Below are positions 3,453 through 57,918 of a DNA stretch of 64,000 nucleotides, one piece after another. The DNA lies in NCBI GenBank assembly GCA_964016885.1, contig OZ024759.1:9362001-9426000 (forward strand). The letters run 5' to 3'. The notes beneath the pieces were generated by a model. The model worked only from the letters and a program-made list of their open reading frames with translations. It made no database searches and was not told where the DNA came from. Position 1 is the stretch's first letter, and every line of letters starts with the position of its first letter. The stretch is from Eledone cirrhosa. Its lineage: Eukaryota. The position numbers were made by a program, and so were the translations under genes.

Positions 3453-3455
<3 letters not shown>

Positions 3456-3654
3456 CGAAGGAAATGTGGTAAGGAACCAGATGGACCATAACGCACCAAA
3501 GTACTCAATACTTAGGGTAGTAGAGTGGGTAATAGGAACGAGTAGGACCCCGACGGCTGAGCTCAAGCCGTTTCGACGGCTAATTCTGAACTAAATTTAG
3601 TCCAGAATTAGCTGTCGAAACAGCTTGAGCTCAGCCGTCGTGGTCCTACTCGTT

Positions 3655-3658
<4 letters not shown>
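3453..3658. mobile_element. Fold-back PLE-derived element family B in (TA)n
   Basis: About 65-bp inverted arms (3531-3594 / 3595-3658) carrying the hammerhead 3' half GAAAC GGCT tgagctc AGCC GTC; flanked by (TA)n; copies at 6818, 17175, 52650, 56272. Confidence 0.85.
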
Positions 3659-6036: not shown

Positions 6037-6066
<30 letters not shown>

Positions 6067-6069
<3 letters not shown>

Positions 6070-6324
6070 AAAGAAAACGAAAAATCAGGGATGCATCTGG
6101 ACTTAGTTTATTTCGTGTTACAAATGTTTCGCCAGCATGTAGCTCGAGTCATGGTCCCTGTATGGATCTGGCTGATTCTTCATTTGTAACACGAAATAAA
6201 CTAAGTCCAGATGCATCACTGATTTTTCGTTTTCTTTATAATATCTACACTCTACTCTGATGAATATCGAGTGCTAATTTTGGCATACCGCCTATGGAAG
6301 CACCATAGCTACCACTAGACACAA
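6067..6324. mobile_element. Fold-back PLE-derived element in (TA)n
   Basis: 60-bp inverted arms 6067-6126 / 6181-6240; spacer is a hammerhead body on the minus strand (UGAAGA..GCCAG..CUGGC GAAA CAUUUG UA); unique tail contains tcgagtgct. Confidence 0.8.
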
Positions 6325-6817: not shown

Positions 6818-7013
6818 AACGAAGGAAATGTGGTAAGGAACCAGGTGGACCATAACGCACCAAAGTACTCAATACTTAGGGTAGTAGAGTGGGTAATAGG
6901 AACGAGTAGGACCCCGACGGCTGAGCTCAAGCCGTTTCGATGGCTAATTCGACGGCTAATTCTGAATTAGCCGTCGAAACGGCTTGAGCTCAGCCGTCGG
7001 GGTCCTACTCATT

Positions 7014-7018
<5 letters not shown>
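6818..7018. mobile_element. Fold-back element family B in (TA)n
   Basis: Near-identical to 3453-3658 but with a different inversion centre containing a short duplication (cggctaattc). Confidence 0.85.
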
Positions 7019-10560: not shown

Positions 10561-11090
<530 letters not shown>

Positions 11091-11804: not shown

Positions 11805-12248
11805 GCAAAAGTTTTATTTAAGATTGTTGGGTTACAACGAGTAAATATTTTATAACTGATATAAAAGCACTCGACAGTTTCTGGAGTAGGTTTACGATAT
11901 TAAACAAATGGAAACTATATTTATAAAACCATATTTATTTCGTTATATATATTTCTGGGATATCATATTAAAAATATGTTATGCCTTGCTCAGACAAAAT
12001 ACAATACATAAGCTGTTTTATAAATAATTAGTGACATACCTTTTGAGAATGCAACTTCCTTTTAAAAAATCAACTTTTTTAAAAGGAAGTTGCATTCTCA
12101 AAAGGTATGTCACTAATTATTTATAAAACAGCTTATGTATTGTATTTTGTCTGAGAAAGGCATACCATATTTTTAATATGATATCCCAGAAATATATATA
12201 ACGAAATAAATATGGTTTTATAAATATAGTTTCCATTTGTTTAATATC

Positions 12249-12250
<2 letters not shown>
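11805..12250. mobile_element. Fold-back element family D, opposite orientation, with mutated hammerhead cores
   Basis: About 175-bp inverted arms 11893-12069 / 12075-12250; cores read CUGAGAA and CUGAGCA; flanked by (TA)n. Confidence 0.85.
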
Positions 12251-17807: not shown

Positions 17808-20800
17808 TAGAGAGAGAGATAGTGAGAGATGGGGTGTGAGAGAGATAGTGAGAGATGGGGTGTGAGAGAGAGATAGTGAGAGATGGGGTGAGAGAGAGAG
17901 ATAGTGAGAGATGGGGTGTGAGAGAGAGATAGTGAGAGATGGGGTGTGAGAGAGAGATAGAGAGAGATGGGGTGTGAGAGAGAGATAGTGAGAGAGAGAT
18001 AGTGAGAGATGGGGTGTGAGAGAGAGATAGAGAGAGATGGGGTGTGAGAGAGAGATAGAGAGAGATGGGGTGTGAGAGAGAGATAGAGAGAGATGGGGTG
18101 TGAGAGAGAGATAGAGAGAGATGGGGTGTGAGAGAGATAGTGAGAGATGGGGTGTGAGAGAGAGATAGTGAGAGATGGGGTGAGAGAGAGATAGTGAGAG
18201 AGAGATAGTGAGAGATGGGGTGTGAGAGAGAGATAGTGAGAGATGGGGTGTGAGAGAGAGATAGTGAGAGATGGGGTGTGAGAGAGATAGTGAGAGATGG
18301 GGTGTGAGAGAGAGATAGTGAGAGATGGGGTGAGAGAGGGAGATAGTGAGAGATGGGGTGTGAGAGAGAGATAGAGAGAGATGGGGTGTGAGAGAGATAG
18401 TGAGAGATGGGGTGTGAGAGAGAGATAGTGAGAGATGGGGTGAGAGAGAGATAGTGAGAGATGGGGTGTGAGAGAGAGATAGTGAGAGATGGGGTGTGAG
18501 AGAGAGATAGTGAGAGATGGGGTGTGAGAGAGAGATAGAGAGAGATGGGGTGTGAGAGAGAGATAGTGAGAGATGGGGTGTGAGAGAGAGATAGTGAGAG
18601 ATGGGGTGAGAGAGAGATAGTGAGAGATGGGGTGAGAGAGAGATAGTGAGAGATGGGGTGAGAGAGAGATAGTGAGAGATGGGGTGTGAGAGAGAGATAG
18701 TGAGAGATGGGGTGAGAGAGAGATAGTGAGAGATGGGGTGTGAGAGAGAGATAGTGAGAGATGGGGTGAGAGAGAGATAGTGAGAGATGGGGTGAGAGAG
18801 AGATAGTGAGAGATGGGGTGTGAGAGAGAGATAGTGAGAGATGGGGTGTGAGAGAGAGATAGAGAGAGATGGGGTGTGAGAGAGATAGTGAGAGATGGGG
18901 TGTGAGAGAGAGATAGAGAGAGATGGGGTGTGAGAGAGAGATAGTGAGAGATGGGGTGTGAGAGAGAGATAGAGAGAGATGGGTGTGAGAGAGAGATAGT
19001 GAGAGATGGGGTGTGAGAGAGAGATAGAGAGAGATGGGGTGTGAGAGAGAGATAGTGAGAGATGGGGTGTGAGAGAGAGATAGTGAGAGATGGGGTGTGA
19101 GAGAGATAGTGAGAGATGGGGTGTGAGAGAGAGATAGTGAGAGAGAGAGATAGTGAGAGATGGGGTGTGAGAGAGAGATAGTGAGAGATGGGGTGAGAGA
19201 GAGATAGTGAGAGATGGGGTGAGAGAGAGATAGTGAGAGATGGGGTGTGAGAGAGAGATAGTGAGAGATGGTGTGTGAGAGAGAGATAGTGAGAGATGGG
19301 GTGAGAGAGAGATAGTGAGAGATGGGGTGAGAGAGAGATAGTGAGAGATGGGGTGTGAGAGAGATAGAGAGAGAGATAGTGAGAGATGGGGTGAGAGAGA
19401 GATAGTGAGAGATGGGGTGTGAGAGAGAGATAGTGAGAGATGGTGTGTGAGAGAGATAGAGAGAGAGATAGTGAGAGATGGGGTGTGAGAGAGATAGTGA
19501 GAGATGGGGTGTGAGAGAGAGATGTAGAGAGATGGGGTGTGAGAGAGAGATAGAGAGAGATGGGGTGTGAGAGAGAGATAGTGAGAGATGGGGTGAGAGA
19601 GAGATAGTGAGAGATGGGGTGTGAGAGAGAGATAGTGAGAGATGGGGTGTGAGAGAGATAGTGAGAGATGGGGTGTGAGAGAGAGATAGTGAGAGATGGG
19701 GTGTTAGAGAGAGATATTGAGAGATGGGGTGTGAGAGAGAGATAGTGAGAGATGGGGTGAGAGAGATAGTGAGAGATGGGGTGTGAGAGAGAGATAGTGA
19801 GAGAGATAGAGAGAGAGATAGTGAGAGATGGGGTGTGAGAGAGAGATAGGGAGAGATGGGGTGTGAGAGAGAGATAGTGAGAGATGGAGTGTGAGAGAGA
19901 GATAGTGAGAGATGGGGGGTGAGAGAGAGATAGTGAGAGATGGGGTGTGAGAGAGAGATAGTGAGAGATGGGGTGAGAGAGAGAGATAGTGAGAGATGGG
20001 GTGAGAGAGAGATAGTGAGAGATGGGGTGTGAGGGAGAGATAGTGAGAGATGGGGTGAGAGATAGATAGTGAGAGATGGGGTGTGAGAGAGAGATAGTGA
20101 GAGATGGGGTGAGAGAGAGATAGTGAGAGATGGGGTGTGAGAGAGAGATAGTGAGAGATGGGGTGAGAGAGAGATAGTGAGAGATGGGGTGTGAGAGAGA
20201 GATAGTGAGAGATGGGGTGTGAGAGAGAGATAGTGAGAGATGGGGTGTGAGAGAGAGATAGTGAGAGATGGGGTGAGAGAGAGATAGTGAGAGATGGGGT
20301 GAGAGAGAGATAGTGAGAGATGGGGTGTGAGAGAGAGATAGTGAGAGATGGGGTGAGAGAGAGATAGTGAGAGATGGGGTGTGAGAGAGAGATAGTGAGA
20401 GATGGGGTGTGAGAGAGATATAGTGAGAGATGGGGTGTGAGAGAGAGATAGTGAGAGATGGGGTGTGAGAGAGAGATAGTGAGAGATGGAGTGTGAGAGA
20501 GAGATAGTGAGAGATGGGGTGTGAGAGAGAGATAGTGAGAGATGGGGTGAGAGAGAGAGATAGTGAGAGATGGGGTGTGAGAGAGAGATAGTGAGAGATG
20601 GGGTGTGAGAGAGAGATAGAGAGAGATGGGGTGTGAGAGAGAGATAGTGAGAGATGGGGTGTGAGAGATGGGGTGTGAGAGAGAGATAGTGAGAGATGGG
20701 GTGTGAGAGAGAGATAGTGAGAGATGGGGTGTGAGAGATGGGGTGAGAGAGAGATAGTGAGAGATGGGGTGTGAGAGAGAGATAGTGAGAGATGGGGTGT

Positions 20801-22095
20801 GAGAGAGAGATAGTGAGAGATGGGGTGTGAGAGAGAGATAGTGAGAGATGGGGTGTGAGAGAGAGATAGAGAGAGATGGGGTGTGAGAGAGAGATAGTGA
20901 GAGATGGGGTGTGAGAGAGAGATAGTGAGAGATGGGGTGTGAGAGAGAGATAGTGAGAGATGGGGTGTGAGAGAGAGATAGAGAGAGATGGGGTGTGAGA
21001 GAGAGATAGTGAGAGATGGGGTGTGAGAGAGAGATAGAGAGAGATGGGGTGTGAGAGAGAGATAGTGAGAGATGGGGTGTGAGAGAGAGATAGTGAGAGA
21101 TGGGGTGTGAGAGAGAGATAGTGAGAGATGGGGTGTGAGAGAGAGATAGTGAGAGATGGGGTGTGAGAGAGAGATAGTGAGAGATGGGGTGTGAGAGAGA
21201 GATAGAGAGAGATGGGGTGTGAGAGAGAGATAGTGAGAGATGGGGTGTGAGAGAGAGATAGTGAGAGATGGGGTGTGAGAGAGAGATAGTGAGAGATGGA
21301 GTGTGAGAGAGAGATAGTGAGAGATGGGGTGTGAGAGAGAGATGTAGAGAGATGGGGTGTGAGAGAGAGATGTAGAGAGATGGGGTGTGAGAGAGATATA
21401 GTGAGAGATGGGGTGTGAGAGAGAGATAGTGAGAGATGGAGTGTGAGAGAGAGATAGTGAGAGATGGGGTGTGAGAGAGAGATAGTGAGAGATGGGGTGT
21501 GAGAGAGAGATAGAGAGAGATGGGGTGTGAGAGAGAGATAGAGAGAGATGGGGTGTGAGAGAGAGATAGAGAGAGATTGGGTGTGAGAGAGAGATAGTGA
21601 GAGATGGGGTGTGAGAGAGAGATAGTGAGAGATGGGGTGTGAGAGAGAGATAGTGAGAGATGGGGTGTGAGAGAGAGATAGTGAGAGATGGGGTGTGAGA
21701 GAGAGATAGTGAGAGATGGGGTGAGAGAGAGATAGTGAGAGATGGGGTGTGAGAGAGAGATAGTGAGAGATGGGGTGTGAGAGAGAGATAGTGAGAGATG
21801 GGGTGTGAGAGAGAGATGTAGAGAGATGGGGTGTGAGAGAGATATAGTGAGAGATGGAGTGTGAGAGAGAGATAGTGAGAGATGGGGTGTGAGAGAGAGA
21901 TAGTGAGAGATGGGGTGTGAGAGAGAGATAGAGAGAGATGGGGTGTGAGAGAGAGATAGAGAGAGATTGGGTGTGAGAGTGAGAGATGGGGTGTGAGAGA
22001 GAGATAGTGAGAGATGGGGTGTGAGAGAGAGATAGTGAGAGATGGGGTGTGAGAGAGAGATAGTGAGAGATGGAGTGTGAGAGAGAGATAGTGAA
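17808..22095. repeat. About 28-bp purine-rich minisatellite (gagagagagatagtgagagatggggtgt)n, about 4.3 kb
   Basis: Direct inspection; 26- and 28-bp variants. Confidence 0.95.
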
Positions 22096-22234
22096 AGCTG
22101 AGGTGGAAATACAGTGATTTTCTTAGTATTACATCAACACCACTACCAGCACCACCACCACCACACCACCACCACCATACAAACATATATACAGTTTACA
22201 TCATAGGCAAGACCCAACACGTTTCAAAACGTAA

Positions 22235-26900: not shown

Positions 26901-27323
26901 ACGATATTAAACAAATGGAAACTATATTTATAAAACCATATTTATTTCATTATACATATTTCAGGGATACCATATTAAAAATATGGCATGCCTTCGTCAG
27001 ATAAAATACAATATATAAACAGTTTTATAAATAATTTTGACGTACCATAATATAAGCGACCATTAAATTAGGAGGCTGCCTATATTATGGTACGTCAAAA
27101 TTATTTATAAAACTGTTTATATATTGTATTTTATCTGATGAAGGCATGCCATATTTTTAATATGGAATCCCTGAAATATGTATAATGAAATAAATATGGT
27201 TTTATAAATATAGTTTCCATTTATTTAATATCGTATATCTACGCCAAAAACTTGTCGAGTGCTTTATATCAGTTATAAAATATTTACTTGTTGTATCCCA
27301 ACAATTTTAAATAAAACTTTTGC
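26901..27323. mobile_element. Fold-back element family D with two hammerheads (- 26945-27006, + 27129-27190)
   Basis: About 150-bp inverted arms; cores CUGACGA and CUGAUGA; GAAA UAUGUA UA; tail contains tcgagtgct. Confidence 0.9.
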
Positions 27324-27341
27324 ATATATATATATATATAT

Positions 27342-27759
27342 ACGATATTAACAAATGGAAACTATATTTATAAAACCATATTTATTTCATTATACATATT
27401 TCAAGGACACCAAGTTAAATTATGGTGTGCTTTCATCAGATAAAATATAATATAGAGCAGTTTTATAAATAAATATTGACATACCCTTAAAGAATGCAAC
27501 CATTACTGTTGGAAGCTCCCTTTAAGGGTATGTCAATATTTATTTATAAAACTGCTCTATATTATATTTTATCTGATGAAAGCACACCATAATTTAACTT
27601 GGTGTCCTTGAAATATGTATAATGAAATAAATATGGTTTTATAAATATAGTTTCCATTCGTTAATATCGTATTTTTACTCCAATTATTTGTTGAGTGCTT
27701 TTTATCAGTTATAAAAATATTTGCTTGTTGTATCCCAACAAATTAAATAGAACTTTTAC

Positions 27760-27760
<1 letters not shown>
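27342..27760. mobile_element. Fold-back element family D with two hammerheads (+ 27567-27627)
   Basis: About 148-bp inverted arms with a different helix II and centre from the neighbouring copy; between (TA)n tracts. Confidence 0.9.
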
Positions 27761-38510: not shown

Positions 38511-38697
38511 GTGGATTGGCAGTATCGGTAAGGGTCGGACGCCATGCTTTGAAGCATAGAGTTACCTCCCTTTATGATCTGAGTTCAAATCCCGCCGAGG
38601 TTAACTTTGCCTTTCATCCTTACGGGGTCGATAAAATAAAGTACCAGTAATGCACTGGGATAATTGCTGGCCTTGTGCCAAAAGTAGAAACAATTAT
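38511..38697 (+). mobile_element. SINE family A, full length
   Basis: A box, B box, body and tail. Confidence 0.9.
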
Positions 38698-39837
38698 TTT
38701 ATATATACTATTATATTTTCATGGTAAAGGCTTTACCTCACATAATATCTCACATAACATTTACATTACTCTATATATACTATTGTATTGTCACAGTAAA
38801 GGCTTTACCTCACATAATACCTCACATAACATTTACATTACTCTATATATACTATTGTATTGTCACAGTAAAGGCTTTACCTCACATAATATCTCACATA
38901 ACATTTACATTACTCTATATATACTATTGTATTGTCACAGTAAAGGCTTTACCTCACATAATATCTCACATAACATTTACATTACTCTATATTTACTATT
39001 GTATTTTCACAGTAAAGGCTTTACCTCACATAATATCTCACATAACATTTACATTACTCTATATATACTATTGTATTGTCACAGTAAAGGCTTTACCTCA
39101 CATAATATCTCACATAACATTTACATTACTCTATATATACTATTGTATTGTCACAGTAAAGGCTTTACCTCACATAATATCTCACATAACATTTACATTA
39201 CTCTATATTTACTATTGTATTTTCACAGTAAAGGCTTTACCTCACATAATATCTCACATAACATTTACATTACTCTATATATACTATTGTATTGTCACAG
39301 TAAAGGCTTTACCTCACATAATATCTCACATAACATTTACATTACTCTATATATACTATTGTATTGTCACAGTAAAGGCTTTACCTCACATAATATCTCA
39401 CATAACATTTACATTACTCTATATATACTATTGTATTTTCACAGTAAAGGCTTTACCTCACATAATATCTCTCATAACATTTACATTACTCTATATATAC
39501 TATTGTATTGTCACAGTAAAGGCTTTACCTCACATAATATCTCACATAACATTTACATTACTCTATATATACTATTGTATTGTCACAGTAAAGGCTTTAC
39601 CTCACATAATATCTCACATAACATTTACATTACTCTATATATACTATTGTATTTTCACAGTAAAGGCTTTACCTCACATAATATCTCACATAACATTTAC
39701 ATTACTCTATATATACTATTGTATTTTCACAGTAAAGGCTTTACCTCACATAATATCTCACATAACATTTACATTACTCTATATATACTATTATATTTTC
39801 ATGGTAAAGGCTTTACCTCACATAATATCTCACATAA
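38698..39837. repeat. 72-bp minisatellite, about 16 copies
   Basis: ttacattactc recurs with period 72. Confidence 0.95.
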
Positions 39838-45662: not shown

Positions 45663-46128
45663 TACAATATTAAATAAATGGAAAACTATATTTATAAAAC
45701 CATATCTATTTCATTATATATATTTCGGGGATATCATATTAACAATATGCTATGCCTTCATCAGACAAAATACAATATAAACAGTTTTATAGATAAATAT
45801 ATTCGACATACCGTAATAAACATCAACTTCATTTGAAGAGGTTCACTCTAGCAGAGTGAACCTCTTCAAATGAAGTTGATGTTTATTACGGTATGTCGAA
45901 TATATTTATCTATAAAACTGTTTATATTGTATTTTGTCTGATGAAGGCATAGCATATTGTTAATATGATATCCCCGAAATATATATAATGAAATAGATAT
46001 GGTTTTATAAATATAGTTTTCCATTTATTTAATATTGTAAATATACTCCAAGTATTTGTCGAGTGCTTTTATATCAGTTATAAATATTTACTAGTTGTAA
46101 CCCAACAATTTTAAATATAACTTTACAT
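45663..46128. mobile_element. Fold-back element family D with two hammerheads (+ 45932-45993)
   Basis: About 185-bp near-perfect inverted arms around a tagca centre; intact CUGAUGA/GAAA cores; tail contains tcgagtgct. Confidence 0.9.
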
Positions 46129-46289
46129 GTATATATATATATATATATATGCGTGTGTGTATATATATATATGTGTGTGTGTATATATATATATATATAA
46201 TATATGTGTGTGAGTGTGTGTTGGTTTTTTTGTTATTGTTACTGCTACTGCTGCTGTGTTAGTAGTAGTAGTAGTAGCAATTACCCAAT

Positions 46290-47619: not shown

Positions 47620-47965
47620 TCTCAGTTCTCCTTTGGGAGCCCCTACATGGACACACTAGAAGAGGAAGACCAAGGTTAACATATGTTGATGCCCTAAGGA
47701 CAGACACTGGTCTGTTGGAGATGCAGGATATGGCAGCGATAATGAGGGACAGAGACCGCTGGAGAGAACTCGTCCATGGATCTCGGGAATTTTACCCGCC
47801 TTAGATAGAGAGAGATATATATCTAGGGTGGGTAAAATTCCCGAGATCCATGGACGAGTTCTCTCCAACAGTCTCTGTCCTTCATCTTCACCGTTGTGTC
47901 CCGCATCTCCCTGAGACCAATGTCTGCCCTCAGGACGTCAACATATGTCACCGTCGGTCTCCCTC
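47620..47965. mobile_element. Two tail-to-tail LINE 3' ends (RTE-like family 3)
   Basis: RGRPRLTYVDALRTDTG..RDRDRWRELV on + ending in agatag; a diverged second copy on - from 47822. Confidence 0.75.
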
Positions 47966-48037
47966 CTGCAGTGTCTCCATGAGTCCCGGGTTCAGTCGGG
48001 TGTAACTACAGTTAGTAAGGTACTTGACTGACTGACT

Positions 48038-54120: not shown

Positions 54121-54183
54121 TAGGAGGTGAAATGTGCATAATAAAATACATGGAACTTTTTTAACCATCTTTTAATTTCTTCT
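54121..54183. mobile_element. Minimal copy of the 200-728 family
   Basis: taggaggtga (reverse complement of 715-724) joined to gaaatgtgcataataaaatacatggaact..ttaaccatctttt. Confidence 0.7.
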
Positions 54184-54197
54184 TATATATATATATA

Positions 54198-54272
<75 letters not shown>

Positions 54273-54325
54273 TATATATATATTTATATATATAATGTAT
54301 ATATATATATACATTATATATATAT

Positions 54326-54481
54326 ATTAAAATAACAGATTAAAGTTTAAGCAAAGAATTGCTGCTTAAACTTTAATGTTATTTTAATAAATATTTGCTC
54401 TACGGTTCTTATATATTTGATATATATTTATCCTTATCGAGCCCTCTTTGGATTTTAGTCTTCAAATTTATTATTATTACT
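54326..54481. mobile_element. Fold-back element family E
   Basis: Reverse-orientation homolog of 28379-28590. Confidence 0.75.
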
Positions 54482-54521
54482 ATACATTATATATATATAT
54501 ATATACACTATATCTCCACTA

Positions 54522-54563
<42 letters not shown>

Positions 54564-54587
54564 CACACTATATATATATATATATAT

Positions 54588-54683
<96 letters not shown>

Positions 54684-54730
54684 TATATATATATATATAT
54701 ATATATATACACTATATATATATATATATA

Positions 54731-54774
<44 letters not shown>

Positions 54775-54825
54775 TATATATATATATATATATATATACA
54801 CTATATATATATATATATATATATA

Positions 54826-54861
<36 letters not shown>

Positions 54862-54920
54862 TATATATATATATATATACACTATATATATATATATACA
54901 CACTATATATATATATATAT

Positions 54921-55256
54921 AATAACTAGAAATTGATTAACATATATATAAACATGAATAATCACAGGAGATAATTTTTAATCATATTAAAAGGTATCTA
55001 TTTTTGAAGTTCTAGTCAACTTTATTTATTTAGTTACCTACCTAGCTATATGTGGTTACACACTTGTAAAAATTATCTCCTGTGATTATTCATGTTTATT
55101 TATATGTTAATCAATTTCTAGTTATTATAAAATGCTCGGACCTACTCATTAGAATCTTTAAGCTTATTTTCCGGGTGATATGGCGCATGTCTTTCTGACA
55201 TGACACCCATAATTTTGATTTGGATTGAATTCATTTAATTTATCTTAATTTTGGAT
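54921..55256. mobile_element. Fold-back element in (TA)n, a further family
   Basis: 60-bp inverted arms 54921-54980 / 55067-55126 plus a unique tail. Confidence 0.7.
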
Positions 55257-55706
55257 ATAGATATATATAGCTACACATACACACACAGCTGTGGCGAATC
55301 TTAGAACACTTGACTTCTATAGTTTCTCACCCTCTCCTTCCTCAGTCATCACATAGATGCGTATGCATGTAATAATTATTTTTTCTAAGTGTATCTGTTT
55401 ATATGTATGTATGTATGTATGTATGTGTAGATGAGTGTGTGTTTGTTATTCTATTGTCTATGTACCTTTCTAAATAAACACACACACACACAAACATGTA
55501 CACTCACACAAATATTATATATAAATATAATTTACACAAACACATATATACACACACACAAACATACACATACACATAACAGCTAATGGGTGTAGCCAAT
55601 TTCTATACATATAGACACACAGGTATAGCGAATATTGGATGCTGCCACCCCTTCCTTCCTCAGTCATCTCTTGTGACGGACAAATACATAAGCATATTAT
55701 ATATTA

Positions 55707-55755
<49 letters not shown>

Positions 55756-55758
<3 letters not shown>

Positions 55759-56120
55759 TCATCATCATCATCATCATTTTACGTCCGCTTTTCCCTGCTT
55801 GCAAGGGTGGGATGGGAACTGATTCTGGCTTGATTTCTACAGCTGGATGCCCTTCCTAACACCAACCTCATTTACAGTGAGTGCTGGGTGCTTTTTTCCC
55901 GTGGCACCTCCACGACCACTTTGCAGTGGAATGATAAGGACCCTAGTCCCTATCATCTCATTTCTACAGCTGAGTAAACTGGAGCAATGTGAAAATAAAG
56001 TGTCTTGCTCAAGGAAACAACACACCACCCGGTCTGAGAACCGAACCCACAACCTTTCGATTGCAAGGTTGTGAGTTCAATTCTCAGACCGGGCGATGTG
56101 TTGCTTCCATGAGCAAGACA
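55756..56120 (-). mobile_element. SINE family B with an adjacent inverted SINE B 5' fragment
   Basis: Minus copy 55756-56066 followed by + strand aaggttgtgagttcaattctcagaccggg..gagcaagac. Confidence 0.85.
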
Positions 56121-56271
56121 TATATATTTATATATATATATAGTTCAAGAAATGGTAAGACAAACACAGAGATGCAAAAACACACACATATACATATATA
56201 TATTATCATTGTGAACACCGTCGAACATTCCTGAAAAAGTTTCTCCACAATTCTCCACAATATATATATAT

Positions 56272-56731
56272 AACGGAGGAAATGTGGTAAGGAACCAGGT
56301 GGACCATAACGCACCAAAGTACTCAATACTTAGGGTAGTAGGGTGGGTAATAGGAACGAGTAGGACCCCGACGGCTGAGCTCAAGCCGTTTCGACGGCTA
56401 ATTCTGGACTAAATGTATCTTCTAGTATCTTCTTTGACCTCATGCCCAGCTGTAGTCGGCACTATCAACGCATGAATGGGTCTCCTCCACCCCCTCTCCC
56501 TCTTTTTCCTACTGGCAGGTTTAGCTACCCCTTCCTTCCACAAATGGCCATCATAGAATTATTATGTCTCAACAACAAACTTTTGACCAATCCTTGTGAC
56601 ATTCACTTTGACCATATATGGAATTACCCCTTGAGAAGCTCGGCTATTCAAACACCAGGATAAAAATGTTCATTTAGTCCAGAATTAGCCATCGAAACGG
56701 CTTGAGCTCAGCCGTCGGGGTCCTACTCGTT

Positions 56732-56735
<4 letters not shown>
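56272..56735. mobile_element. Family B element with a long inverted arm containing a complete hammerhead
   Basis: Minus-strand 3' end 56272-56415 joined to a + arm 56416-56735; flanked by TA repeats. Confidence 0.85.
56626..56721 (+). ncRNA. Type I hammerhead motif with U3-A8 core variant
   Basis: ACCCC UUGAGAA G CUCGGCUAUUC..GAAUUAGCCAUC GAAAC GGCU UGAGCUC AGCC GUC GGGGU. Confidence 0.75.
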
Positions 56736-56804
<69 letters not shown>

Positions 56805-56807
<3 letters not shown>

Positions 56808-56997
56808 GAGGTTATATTTAATTTGTTGGGATTCAACAAGCTTAAAAATTTCCGGGTATGTCAATATTTATTTATAAAACAAATCTGTATTTTATCTGAT
56901 GAAAGCGCACCATAATTTGCCTTGGTTGCACTTGAAATATATATAATAAAATAATTATGGTTTTATAAATATAGTTTCCATTTATTAATATATTGTA
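56805..56997. mobile_element. Family D element: short inverted 3' tail plus one arm with hammerhead (+ 56890-56951)
   Basis: 56810-56845 is the reverse complement of the family D tail end; the arm has an intact CUGAUGA..GAAA UAUAUA UA AUAAAA. Confidence 0.85.
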
Positions 56998-57017: not shown

Positions 57018-57235
57018 TTGGTAAACGGAAAAGAAAATGGTGACAAATTGTTCACAGTGAAAAATAGTTTAATTAGGAATAATTGATGATATTGCTTCTC
57101 CTTTCTTTATTTCTTTATTTCTTTATTTCTTATTCCTAATTAAACTATTTTTCACTGTGAACAATTTGTCAGCATTTTCTTTTCCGTTTACCAATATATC
57201 ATAACTCGTGTGTTACACCTCTATTCTTTTAAATA
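57018..57235. mobile_element. Fold-back element family G
   Basis: 65-bp inverted arms 57018-57082 / 57130-57194 plus tail; between (TA)n tracts. Confidence 0.85.
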
Positions 57236-57650: not shown

Positions 57651-57918
57651 TTAGTAAAAAGGAAAATAAAATGGTGACAAATTTTTCCCAGTGAAAAATA
57701 GTTTAATTAGGAATAAGTATAAATTAGTAATAAGTATTGGTTAGTATTCAGTTTTTACTGGGTGCGCATTTCTAATGCTTTAACCAATACTTATTACTAA
57801 TTTATACTTATTCCTAATTAAACTATTTTTCACTGGGAAAAATTTGTCAGCATTTTCTTTTTTTTTTTTTTTTACTAATATATCACAACTCGTGTGTCAC
57901 ACCTCTATTTTTTTAAAT
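57651..57918. mobile_element. Fold-back element family G
   Basis: About 93-bp inverted arms; centre has GAAA UGCGCA on the minus strand; same tail as 57018-57235. Confidence 0.85.

Follow-up and report, generated by a model that had tools for sequence, protein, structure and literature searches.

Inverted arms in three families of Penelope-like elements of Eledone cirrhosa: probable priming from both ends of a target cut

Introduction

Penelope-like elements (PLEs) of the Hydra clade share a signature that comprises the motifs RW[K/R], DKT, CxCX5C, CxxC and CxH, together with (TA)n targets and hammerhead motifs, as given in the available part of PMC8557442. The same source treats as an open question by what route the inverted ends of PLEs arise. 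In the Discussion of PMC3846280, PLE inverted repeats are ascribed to self-priming. For Penelope, accessible text places the RNA start inside the pseudo-LTR. In the Poseidon clade, the Poseidon_Ac protein nicks and extends both target strands (Frangieh et al. 2024, PMC11167929). According to the accessible sections of that paper (PMC11167929), both start sites are internal and match tail ends, start-site use in vitro is alike on both strands, and the Poseidon protein is a predicted dimer.

The window analysed here is a stretch of 64,000 nt of the E. cirrhosa genome (assembly GCA_964016885.1, contig OZ024759.1, positions 9,362,001 to 9,426,000), which is rich in (TA)n tracts with short inverted repeats and belongs to a 3.0-Gb assembly. 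A preliminary description of the window had drawn attention to insertions whose inverted arm seemed too long to have been copied from the strand inserted with it. We compared three such insertions, cases A, B and C, with other copies of the same three families.

Materials and methods

The first 100 family A, 30 family B and 30 family C tail ends on contig C1 were sampled, as well as 30 family A arm ends. A set of long copies was anchored on an internal 22-mer at about +102 to +123, which gave 3,511 matches, and 64 of these loci were inspected. The two halves of a copy were resolved by script in 71 A, 14 B (13 after one duplicate had been dropped) and 17 C copies. As references, four loci of family B and five of family C were used, and these matched themselves. 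The script counts omit complex or long copies, six in A, which were read by hand, and at least five in B and C together.

Results

Three lopsided insertions in the window

Case A spans 56272-56736, case B 56805-56995 and case C 54121-54184, and (TA)n flanks all three. Their features are as follows.

54121..54130, minus strand: family C tail terminus, 10 nt, the last 3 nt of which (54128-54130) are common to the arm
54128..54184, plus strand: family C tail-less arm (sense 3' end of the pseudo-LTR), starting inside the hammerhead core
56272..56349, minus strand: family A tail, 78 nt
56350..56415, minus strand: family A tailed-strand body, 66 nt, ending at the common stop point of the family
56416..56421, no strand: junction insert of case A, 6 nt, duplicating adjoining arm sequence
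56422..56736, plus strand: family A tail-less arm, 315 nt, exceeding the overlap by about 250 nt
56626..56721, plus strand: predicted type I hammerhead variant (U3/A8 core) in the family A arm, from the fold of the homologous stretch of copy L127
56737..56804, no strand: (TA)n tract, the insertion target common to cases A and B
56805..56849, minus strand: family B tail terminus, 45 of 92 nt (45/45 nt match)
56850..56995, plus strand: family B tail-less arm, about 146 nt (142/147 nt match)
56896..56945, plus strand: hammerhead core motif in the family B arm (motif match)

The layout and the asymmetry given in the preliminary description were confirmed. It had put case C at about 10 bp of tail joined to a 55-bp arm and case B at about 40 bp joined to a 145-bp arm, and we found a 10-nt tail terminus with a 57-nt arm and a 45-nt tail with an arm of about 146 nt, respectively. 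The arm of case A does run about 250 bp past the overlap, and this extension is contiguous element sequence in other fetched copies. The tail and antisense body of case A were identical to copy L008 at 142/144 positions and its arm at 308/315. The first 10 nt of case C equal the tail terminus of family C copies, in which the full tail measures about 90 nt; by a rough estimate, its five informative tail letters would occur at the fixed place by chance with a probability of about 2e-4. With terminal TA letters counted, 58/59 nt of the case C arm were identical to a family C copy. The tailed side of cases B and C never reaches the arm sequence, and the two products of case B therefore do not overlap.

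The junction of case A was bridged by no read piece, and contigs and reads were collapsed on repeats. Reads piled up at 56403 in one reduced-representation run, which may reflect a restriction site. The shapes of cases A, B and C recurred at other loci with different junctions.

The window holds further features of related appearance. A (CAT)n-ended repeat at 55756-56120, dispersed in the window, ends here in its own inverted arm (56053-56120). Older TA-embedded hairpin families with more diverged arms lie at 54327-54480, 54922-55125, 57018-57232, 57656-57916, 6066-6241 and 47646-47981. Near-symmetric copies of family A and of B-related families were seen at 3455-3656, 6818-7015, 10678-11087, 11810-12249, 26901-27760 and 45665-46130, among them a palindrome, 99% perfect, whose 193-nt arms are separated by a 3-nt spacer. 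Long tandem arrays occupy 17810-22105 and 38693-39837 (28/56-bp and 72-bp units).

Family identity

Judged from sequence, cases A, B and C are assigned to three families of Hydra-clade PLEs, of which they are short copies. All three families have the same layout, a tail with an antisense strand followed by an inverted tail-less arm. Seen along the coding strand, the 3' ends of both halves face outward into TA and the truncated 5' ends meet. Exact matches to the tail-end pattern numbered 21,637 for family A, 2,252 for family B and 802 for family C genome-wide, and the tail-less end pattern of family A had 17,741.

When family A was extended at L127, partial tandems and an open frame of 786 codons with YRDD and VIY..C/YIG motifs came into view. 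This single ORF carries a PLE-type reverse transcriptase (RT) and a GIY-YIG endonuclease, as in endonuclease-bearing (EN+) PLEs, and the partial tandems of the pseudo-LTR, the inverted 5'-truncated copy and the one-sided tail agree with that group as well. In Atlas, family A matched clusters with HTH_animal, GIY-YIG and RVT_1 at 0.97-0.99. Pfam gave a weak GIY-YIG match for family A (E=0.12) and no match with the whole ORF, and a sequence search of the PDB gave no meaningful match. Families B and C were linked to homologous frames at about 32-42% and 33-38% identity.

Among the features of the Hydra clade, family A shows the RWK-like motif as RWR at residue 104 and DKT at residue 184, and families A and B show the CxCX5C linker and CxxC and CxH beside conserved E and N. 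A hammerhead is predicted in the pseudo-LTR, as a core motif in B and C and a variant core in A, where the hammerhead-like fold has U3/A8 in place of C3/G8. Rfam returned no hammerhead match and only hairpin-type chance matches. The window cases and the fetched copies were all inserted in (TA)n; some samples were anchored on TA, and the internally anchored set shows (TA)n insertion too. The families are placed in the clade by motifs, layout and target rather than by a tree.

A common inner stop point

In each family, both halves end at a characteristic inner point, which lies at +53 to +66 for family A, at about +183 for B and at +158 to +165 for C. Both halves did so in 41/65 short family A copies. 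Lopsided short copies had one half at this point in 12/16 cases in A, 6/9 in B (one past it) and 9/12 in C; a deletion across the centre, modelled with uniform breakpoints only, predicts 27%, 19% and 10%, respectively. The common stop point makes many hairpins symmetric with no need for fold-back.

The stop point would mark the 5' terminus of an RNA whose start lies within the pseudo-LTR. In family A it falls in stem II of the predicted variant hammerhead. We rejected hammerhead cleavage as the main stop because in each of the three families the stop lies upstream of the predicted cleavage site. A slight excess of ends at +19 to +21, the predicted hammerhead cleavage site, comprised 4/41 tailed strands of short family A copies (p=0.03) and is only suggestive. 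Inspection of the resolved copies by eye gave no consistent cap-derived extra base at the stop point.

Three of the four copies holding more than one unit ran past the stop point (241, 342 and about 1,950 nt). Copies of this kind mean that the template of long copies has to be tandem or circular, or has to involve strand transfer, and the tandem or circular template proposed earlier is plausible for long copies. L127, L327 and L340 each carry the full ORF with an upstream partial copy of about 1,950, 241 and 342 nt, respectively, an arrangement compatible with circular or tandem RNA. A tailed strand ending at the stop point beside a long arm was seen in case A, L033 and L147; as a pattern this is weak, since the unbiased long set has only one instance among about 18 pairs of this sort.

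Arm length compared with the tailed strand

In simple fold-back, the arm is never longer than the strand from which it is copied. The arm exceeded the tailed strand by more than 5 nt in 18/71 copies of family A, 11/13 of B and 8/17 of C, and the tailed strand was the longer one in 12, 2 and 6 copies, respectively. In eight A, eight B and three C copies with the longer arm, the tail was cut and the overlap was zero. The 43 long family A pairs, which were read by hand so that their lengths are approximate, had an arm more than 20 nt longer in 18, shorter in 22 and near-equal in 3. Since the arm is so often longer than the strand it would be copied from, simple fold-back fails, and the claim that the arm was not copied from the co-inserted strand holds for a large share of copies in all three families.

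Each half also has its own truncation point, as had been proposed: the lengths were uncorrelated in family C (rho -0.09, n=16), where the span is longer, and the long family A pairs gave rho 0.23 (p=0.18, n=36). The extensive overlap of the two products that had been claimed was found as well, reaching kilobases. Lopsidedness was as frequent in young copies (14/43) as in older ones (9/28), and 8/27 copies without a private change had the longer arm.

About 5/65 short family A copies were exactly symmetric below the common stop point; these still have the appearance of fold-back or of a symmetric loss of the tip. Where neither half of a short A pair lay at the stop point, 5/10 pairs were symmetric within 2 nt, and two long pairs were exactly symmetric (154/154 and 191/191; permutation p=0.05 for near-symmetry). 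Given these symmetric pairs, a small minority of copies probably arose by a route resembling fold-back. Junctions in the 71 A copies showed microhomology in 24, inserts in 34 and blunt joins in 13; target-site duplications are unreadable in (TA)n.

Outer ends and start sites

A small hairpin is predicted a few nt past the pseudo-LTR end and a second one past the tail end, at a real tandem junction. The preliminary description had one product primed at the RNA 3' end; both outer ends sit a few nt before a predicted hairpin, the second of which lies beyond the tail. A start at the tail would thus need RNA beyond it, so that the tail end is unlikely to be the RNA 3' end. Priming at two internal sites is the likely alternative, and the two starts, at the tail end and the pseudo-LTR end, would both lie just before a small RNA hairpin.

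Coordination of the two halves

Full independence of the two ends did not hold, as a tailed half was paired with a tail-less half in 70/71 family A copies. The 30 family A arm ends comprised 27 that face a tailed strand in the locus, two long ones with a tail further off and one alone. Short arms always had a partner (26/26); the rule that an arm never stands alone failed for long arms, about 12/64 loci having no visible partner. One arm/arm copy was found (L336). The two halves were long or short together: both exceeded 70 nt in 39/43 pairs, against a baseline of about 8-9%, and short A halves lay jointly at the stop point (Fisher p=0.0007).

Diagnostic subfamily sites differed between the halves at 9/194 sites in A, 0/13 in B and 3/107 in C, while random pairs differed at fractions of 0.57, 0.40 and 0.38, respectively. 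Private alleles were common to both halves in 16/35 long pairs. The proposed test for arms from different source subfamilies was thus largely negative at diagnostic sites, with the exception of one cross-family chimera, L366. If the subfamilies were active in different periods, as is possible, allele concordance is a weaker means of counting templates. Taken together, the same alleles, the joint length and the strict pairing argue that priming is coordinated on one source. A-to-G editing, which would serve as a natural mark of the template, was not found in 35 long pairs.

Several loci were of unusual structure. In L366 (G000:C1:83944870-83948630, locus 154-2140), 4 nt of microhomology connect a family A arm, about 1,990 nt long, to a B-related tail end, and TA borders the locus at either side; two templates copied at a single break would explain it, as would a deletion between adjacent insertions. 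L182 (G000:C1:25028634-25032634) reads as a tail with 60 nt, a jump into the ORF, a tail with 57 nt and a 60-nt arm; it holds the 5' leader three times, and a private change is common to its two tailed passes. L044 (G000:C1:5865221-5868250) contains a 26/61 copy and its inverted twin about 200 bases away, and at L242/L243 two B insertions, about 0.88 Mb from each other, are identical together with their flanks; the identical junctions at L044 and L242/L243 are likely DNA-level duplications. Two apparent mosaics, L333 and L337, were discarded as alignment artefacts from flanking TA.

Discussion

We consider it probable that both ends of a cut in (TA)n each prime a copy of the same source RNA, and that the truncated copies are end-joined head to head. 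This reading takes up what the copies display directly, namely the layout, the family identity, the two-way asymmetry, the fixed outer ends, the common stop and the same-source alleles. The endonuclease would cut both strands in (TA)n, and from each 3' end reverse transcription would be primed, at the tail end in one case and at the pseudo-LTR end in the other. Each product would stop at the RNA 5' end or earlier, and the two products would be joined by end-joining with short microhomology or inserts. In most events only the 5' leader would be copied, and synthesis would run off the template at its 5' end, at about +61 for family A, +163 for C and +183 for B; about a tenth of the halves would come from full-length, tandem or circular RNA and truncate freely. 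For families A, B and C, all these steps are inferred from sequence. We favour one RNA molecule copied twice over two sister RNAs from one locus, because the halves are long or short together. The scheme fits the accessible part of the published in vitro biochemistry (PMC11167929). One point against it is that alike start-site use in vitro does not by itself explain the strict pairing of a tailed with a tail-less half.

The most serious competitor is a symmetric hairpin made by fold-back, one side of which was trimmed when the tip was opened or by later deletion of the centre. It is the published self-priming reading in the available part of PMC3846280. It also predicts same-source alleles and accommodates those copies that are exactly symmetric at positions other than the stop point; the inserts (34/71) and microhomologies (24/71) at junctions suit deletion repair equally. 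Long palindromes are unstable in animal genomes, which speaks for trimming, and yet near-perfect palindromes with arms of 177-193 nt persist in the window. Fold-back offers no reason why the arm should end at the pseudo-LTR without a tail, as it does in 70/71 copies. Copies with one half at the stop point are far commoner than under uniform deletion, asymmetry does not rise with age, and arms exceed the tailed strand by 1.4-2.4 kb in L319 and L324. Trimming at the moment of insertion would be compatible with the flat age trend. As the general route, fold-back with trimming seems unlikely to us.

Two other readings fare worse. A single cDNA could be made from an RNA that holds both orientations, a hairpin or panhandle transcript, with the enzyme jumping in or out of register; one priming would then give same-source alleles, the pairing of long halves with long ones and the longer arms. 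The RNA 5' end or the cDNA stop would have to hit the pseudo-LTR end every time, the common inner stop of both halves and the copy-to-copy differences at junctions would go unexplained, and 35 long pairs bore no strand-specific editing signature, which makes this reading very improbable. The least probable of the readings weighed is that a dimer or two complexes independently copied two unrelated RNAs from the cell pool. The cross-family join in L366, a few single diagnostic mismatches in young copies (L047 and L054) and the dimer predicted for the Poseidon protein in the accessible part of PMC11167929 agree with it. Against this, diagnostic sites almost never differ, private alleles are common to the halves, long and short halves are not randomly mixed, and L366 is 1/64 loci and could be a deletion between neighbouring insertions.

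Returning to priming from both ends of one cut, we tentatively propose a more specific form, to which we would give somewhat less than an even chance. An asymmetric pair of RTs may copy one RNA twice, from two internal sites marked by hairpins, onto a double-strand cut, giving two first-strand cDNAs with no priming of a second strand; short copies would be 5' run-offs, long copies would derive from circular or tandem RNA, and two families would rarely co-insert. Of the interpretation offered in the preliminary description, the asymmetry, the separate truncation points and the overlap stand, and priming at the RNA 3' end and full independence of the two ends are not supported; the test proposed there for arms from different source subfamilies was largely negative.

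The layout and the clade are already published; what the present work adds is support in numbers, and it describes no new kind of system. With young copies in the tens of thousands, self-priming can be tested against two-ended priming, and the data favour the latter; they also rule out frequent use of unrelated templates. Sharp predictions follow for the in vitro system, namely that start sites pair strictly, that synthesis runs off the RNA at its 5' end and that products carry a single marker. Our literature search, the scope of which left most subscription journals outside, found no paper that derives the inverted PLE arm from two-ended priming.

Twin priming of L1, associated with Ostertag and Kazazian, starts with a second target end that primes a second cDNA, the inversion being joined by microhomology. 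The second primer anneals there at a variable internal site, the two products represent different RNA segments and they do not overlap, whereas here the start is fixed and the same segment is present twice, so that the copies do not conform to the L1 type. The EN+ PLEs of the Hydra clade (Craig et al. 2021, PMC8557442, as far as accessible) have the same motifs, a C-terminal endonuclease of GIY-YIG type and a unit of about 3.1 kb. In comparison with the described clade, copy numbers here reach tens of thousands and the hammerhead core of family A is a variant; the tails measure 78-94 nt, as opposed to the 30-40 bp given for PLEs in the available text of PMC8557442. Adineta Pen2a shares the head-to-head layout, the one-sided tail and the partial tandems (PMC3846280 and the legend of Fig. 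2 in PMC8557442, in the parts available). The accessible text of the Pen2a paper (PMC3846280) reads the layout as self-priming, which the lengths found here oppose for most copies. The Poseidon_Ac reaction, from another clade, resembles the insertions described here in its AT-rich targets and two internal starts, to judge from the available part of PMC11167929; that part does not derive the inverted arm from two-ended priming. Start use was alike on the two strands in that reaction (PMC11167929, same part), whereas the E. cirrhosa copies contain almost strictly one start of each kind.
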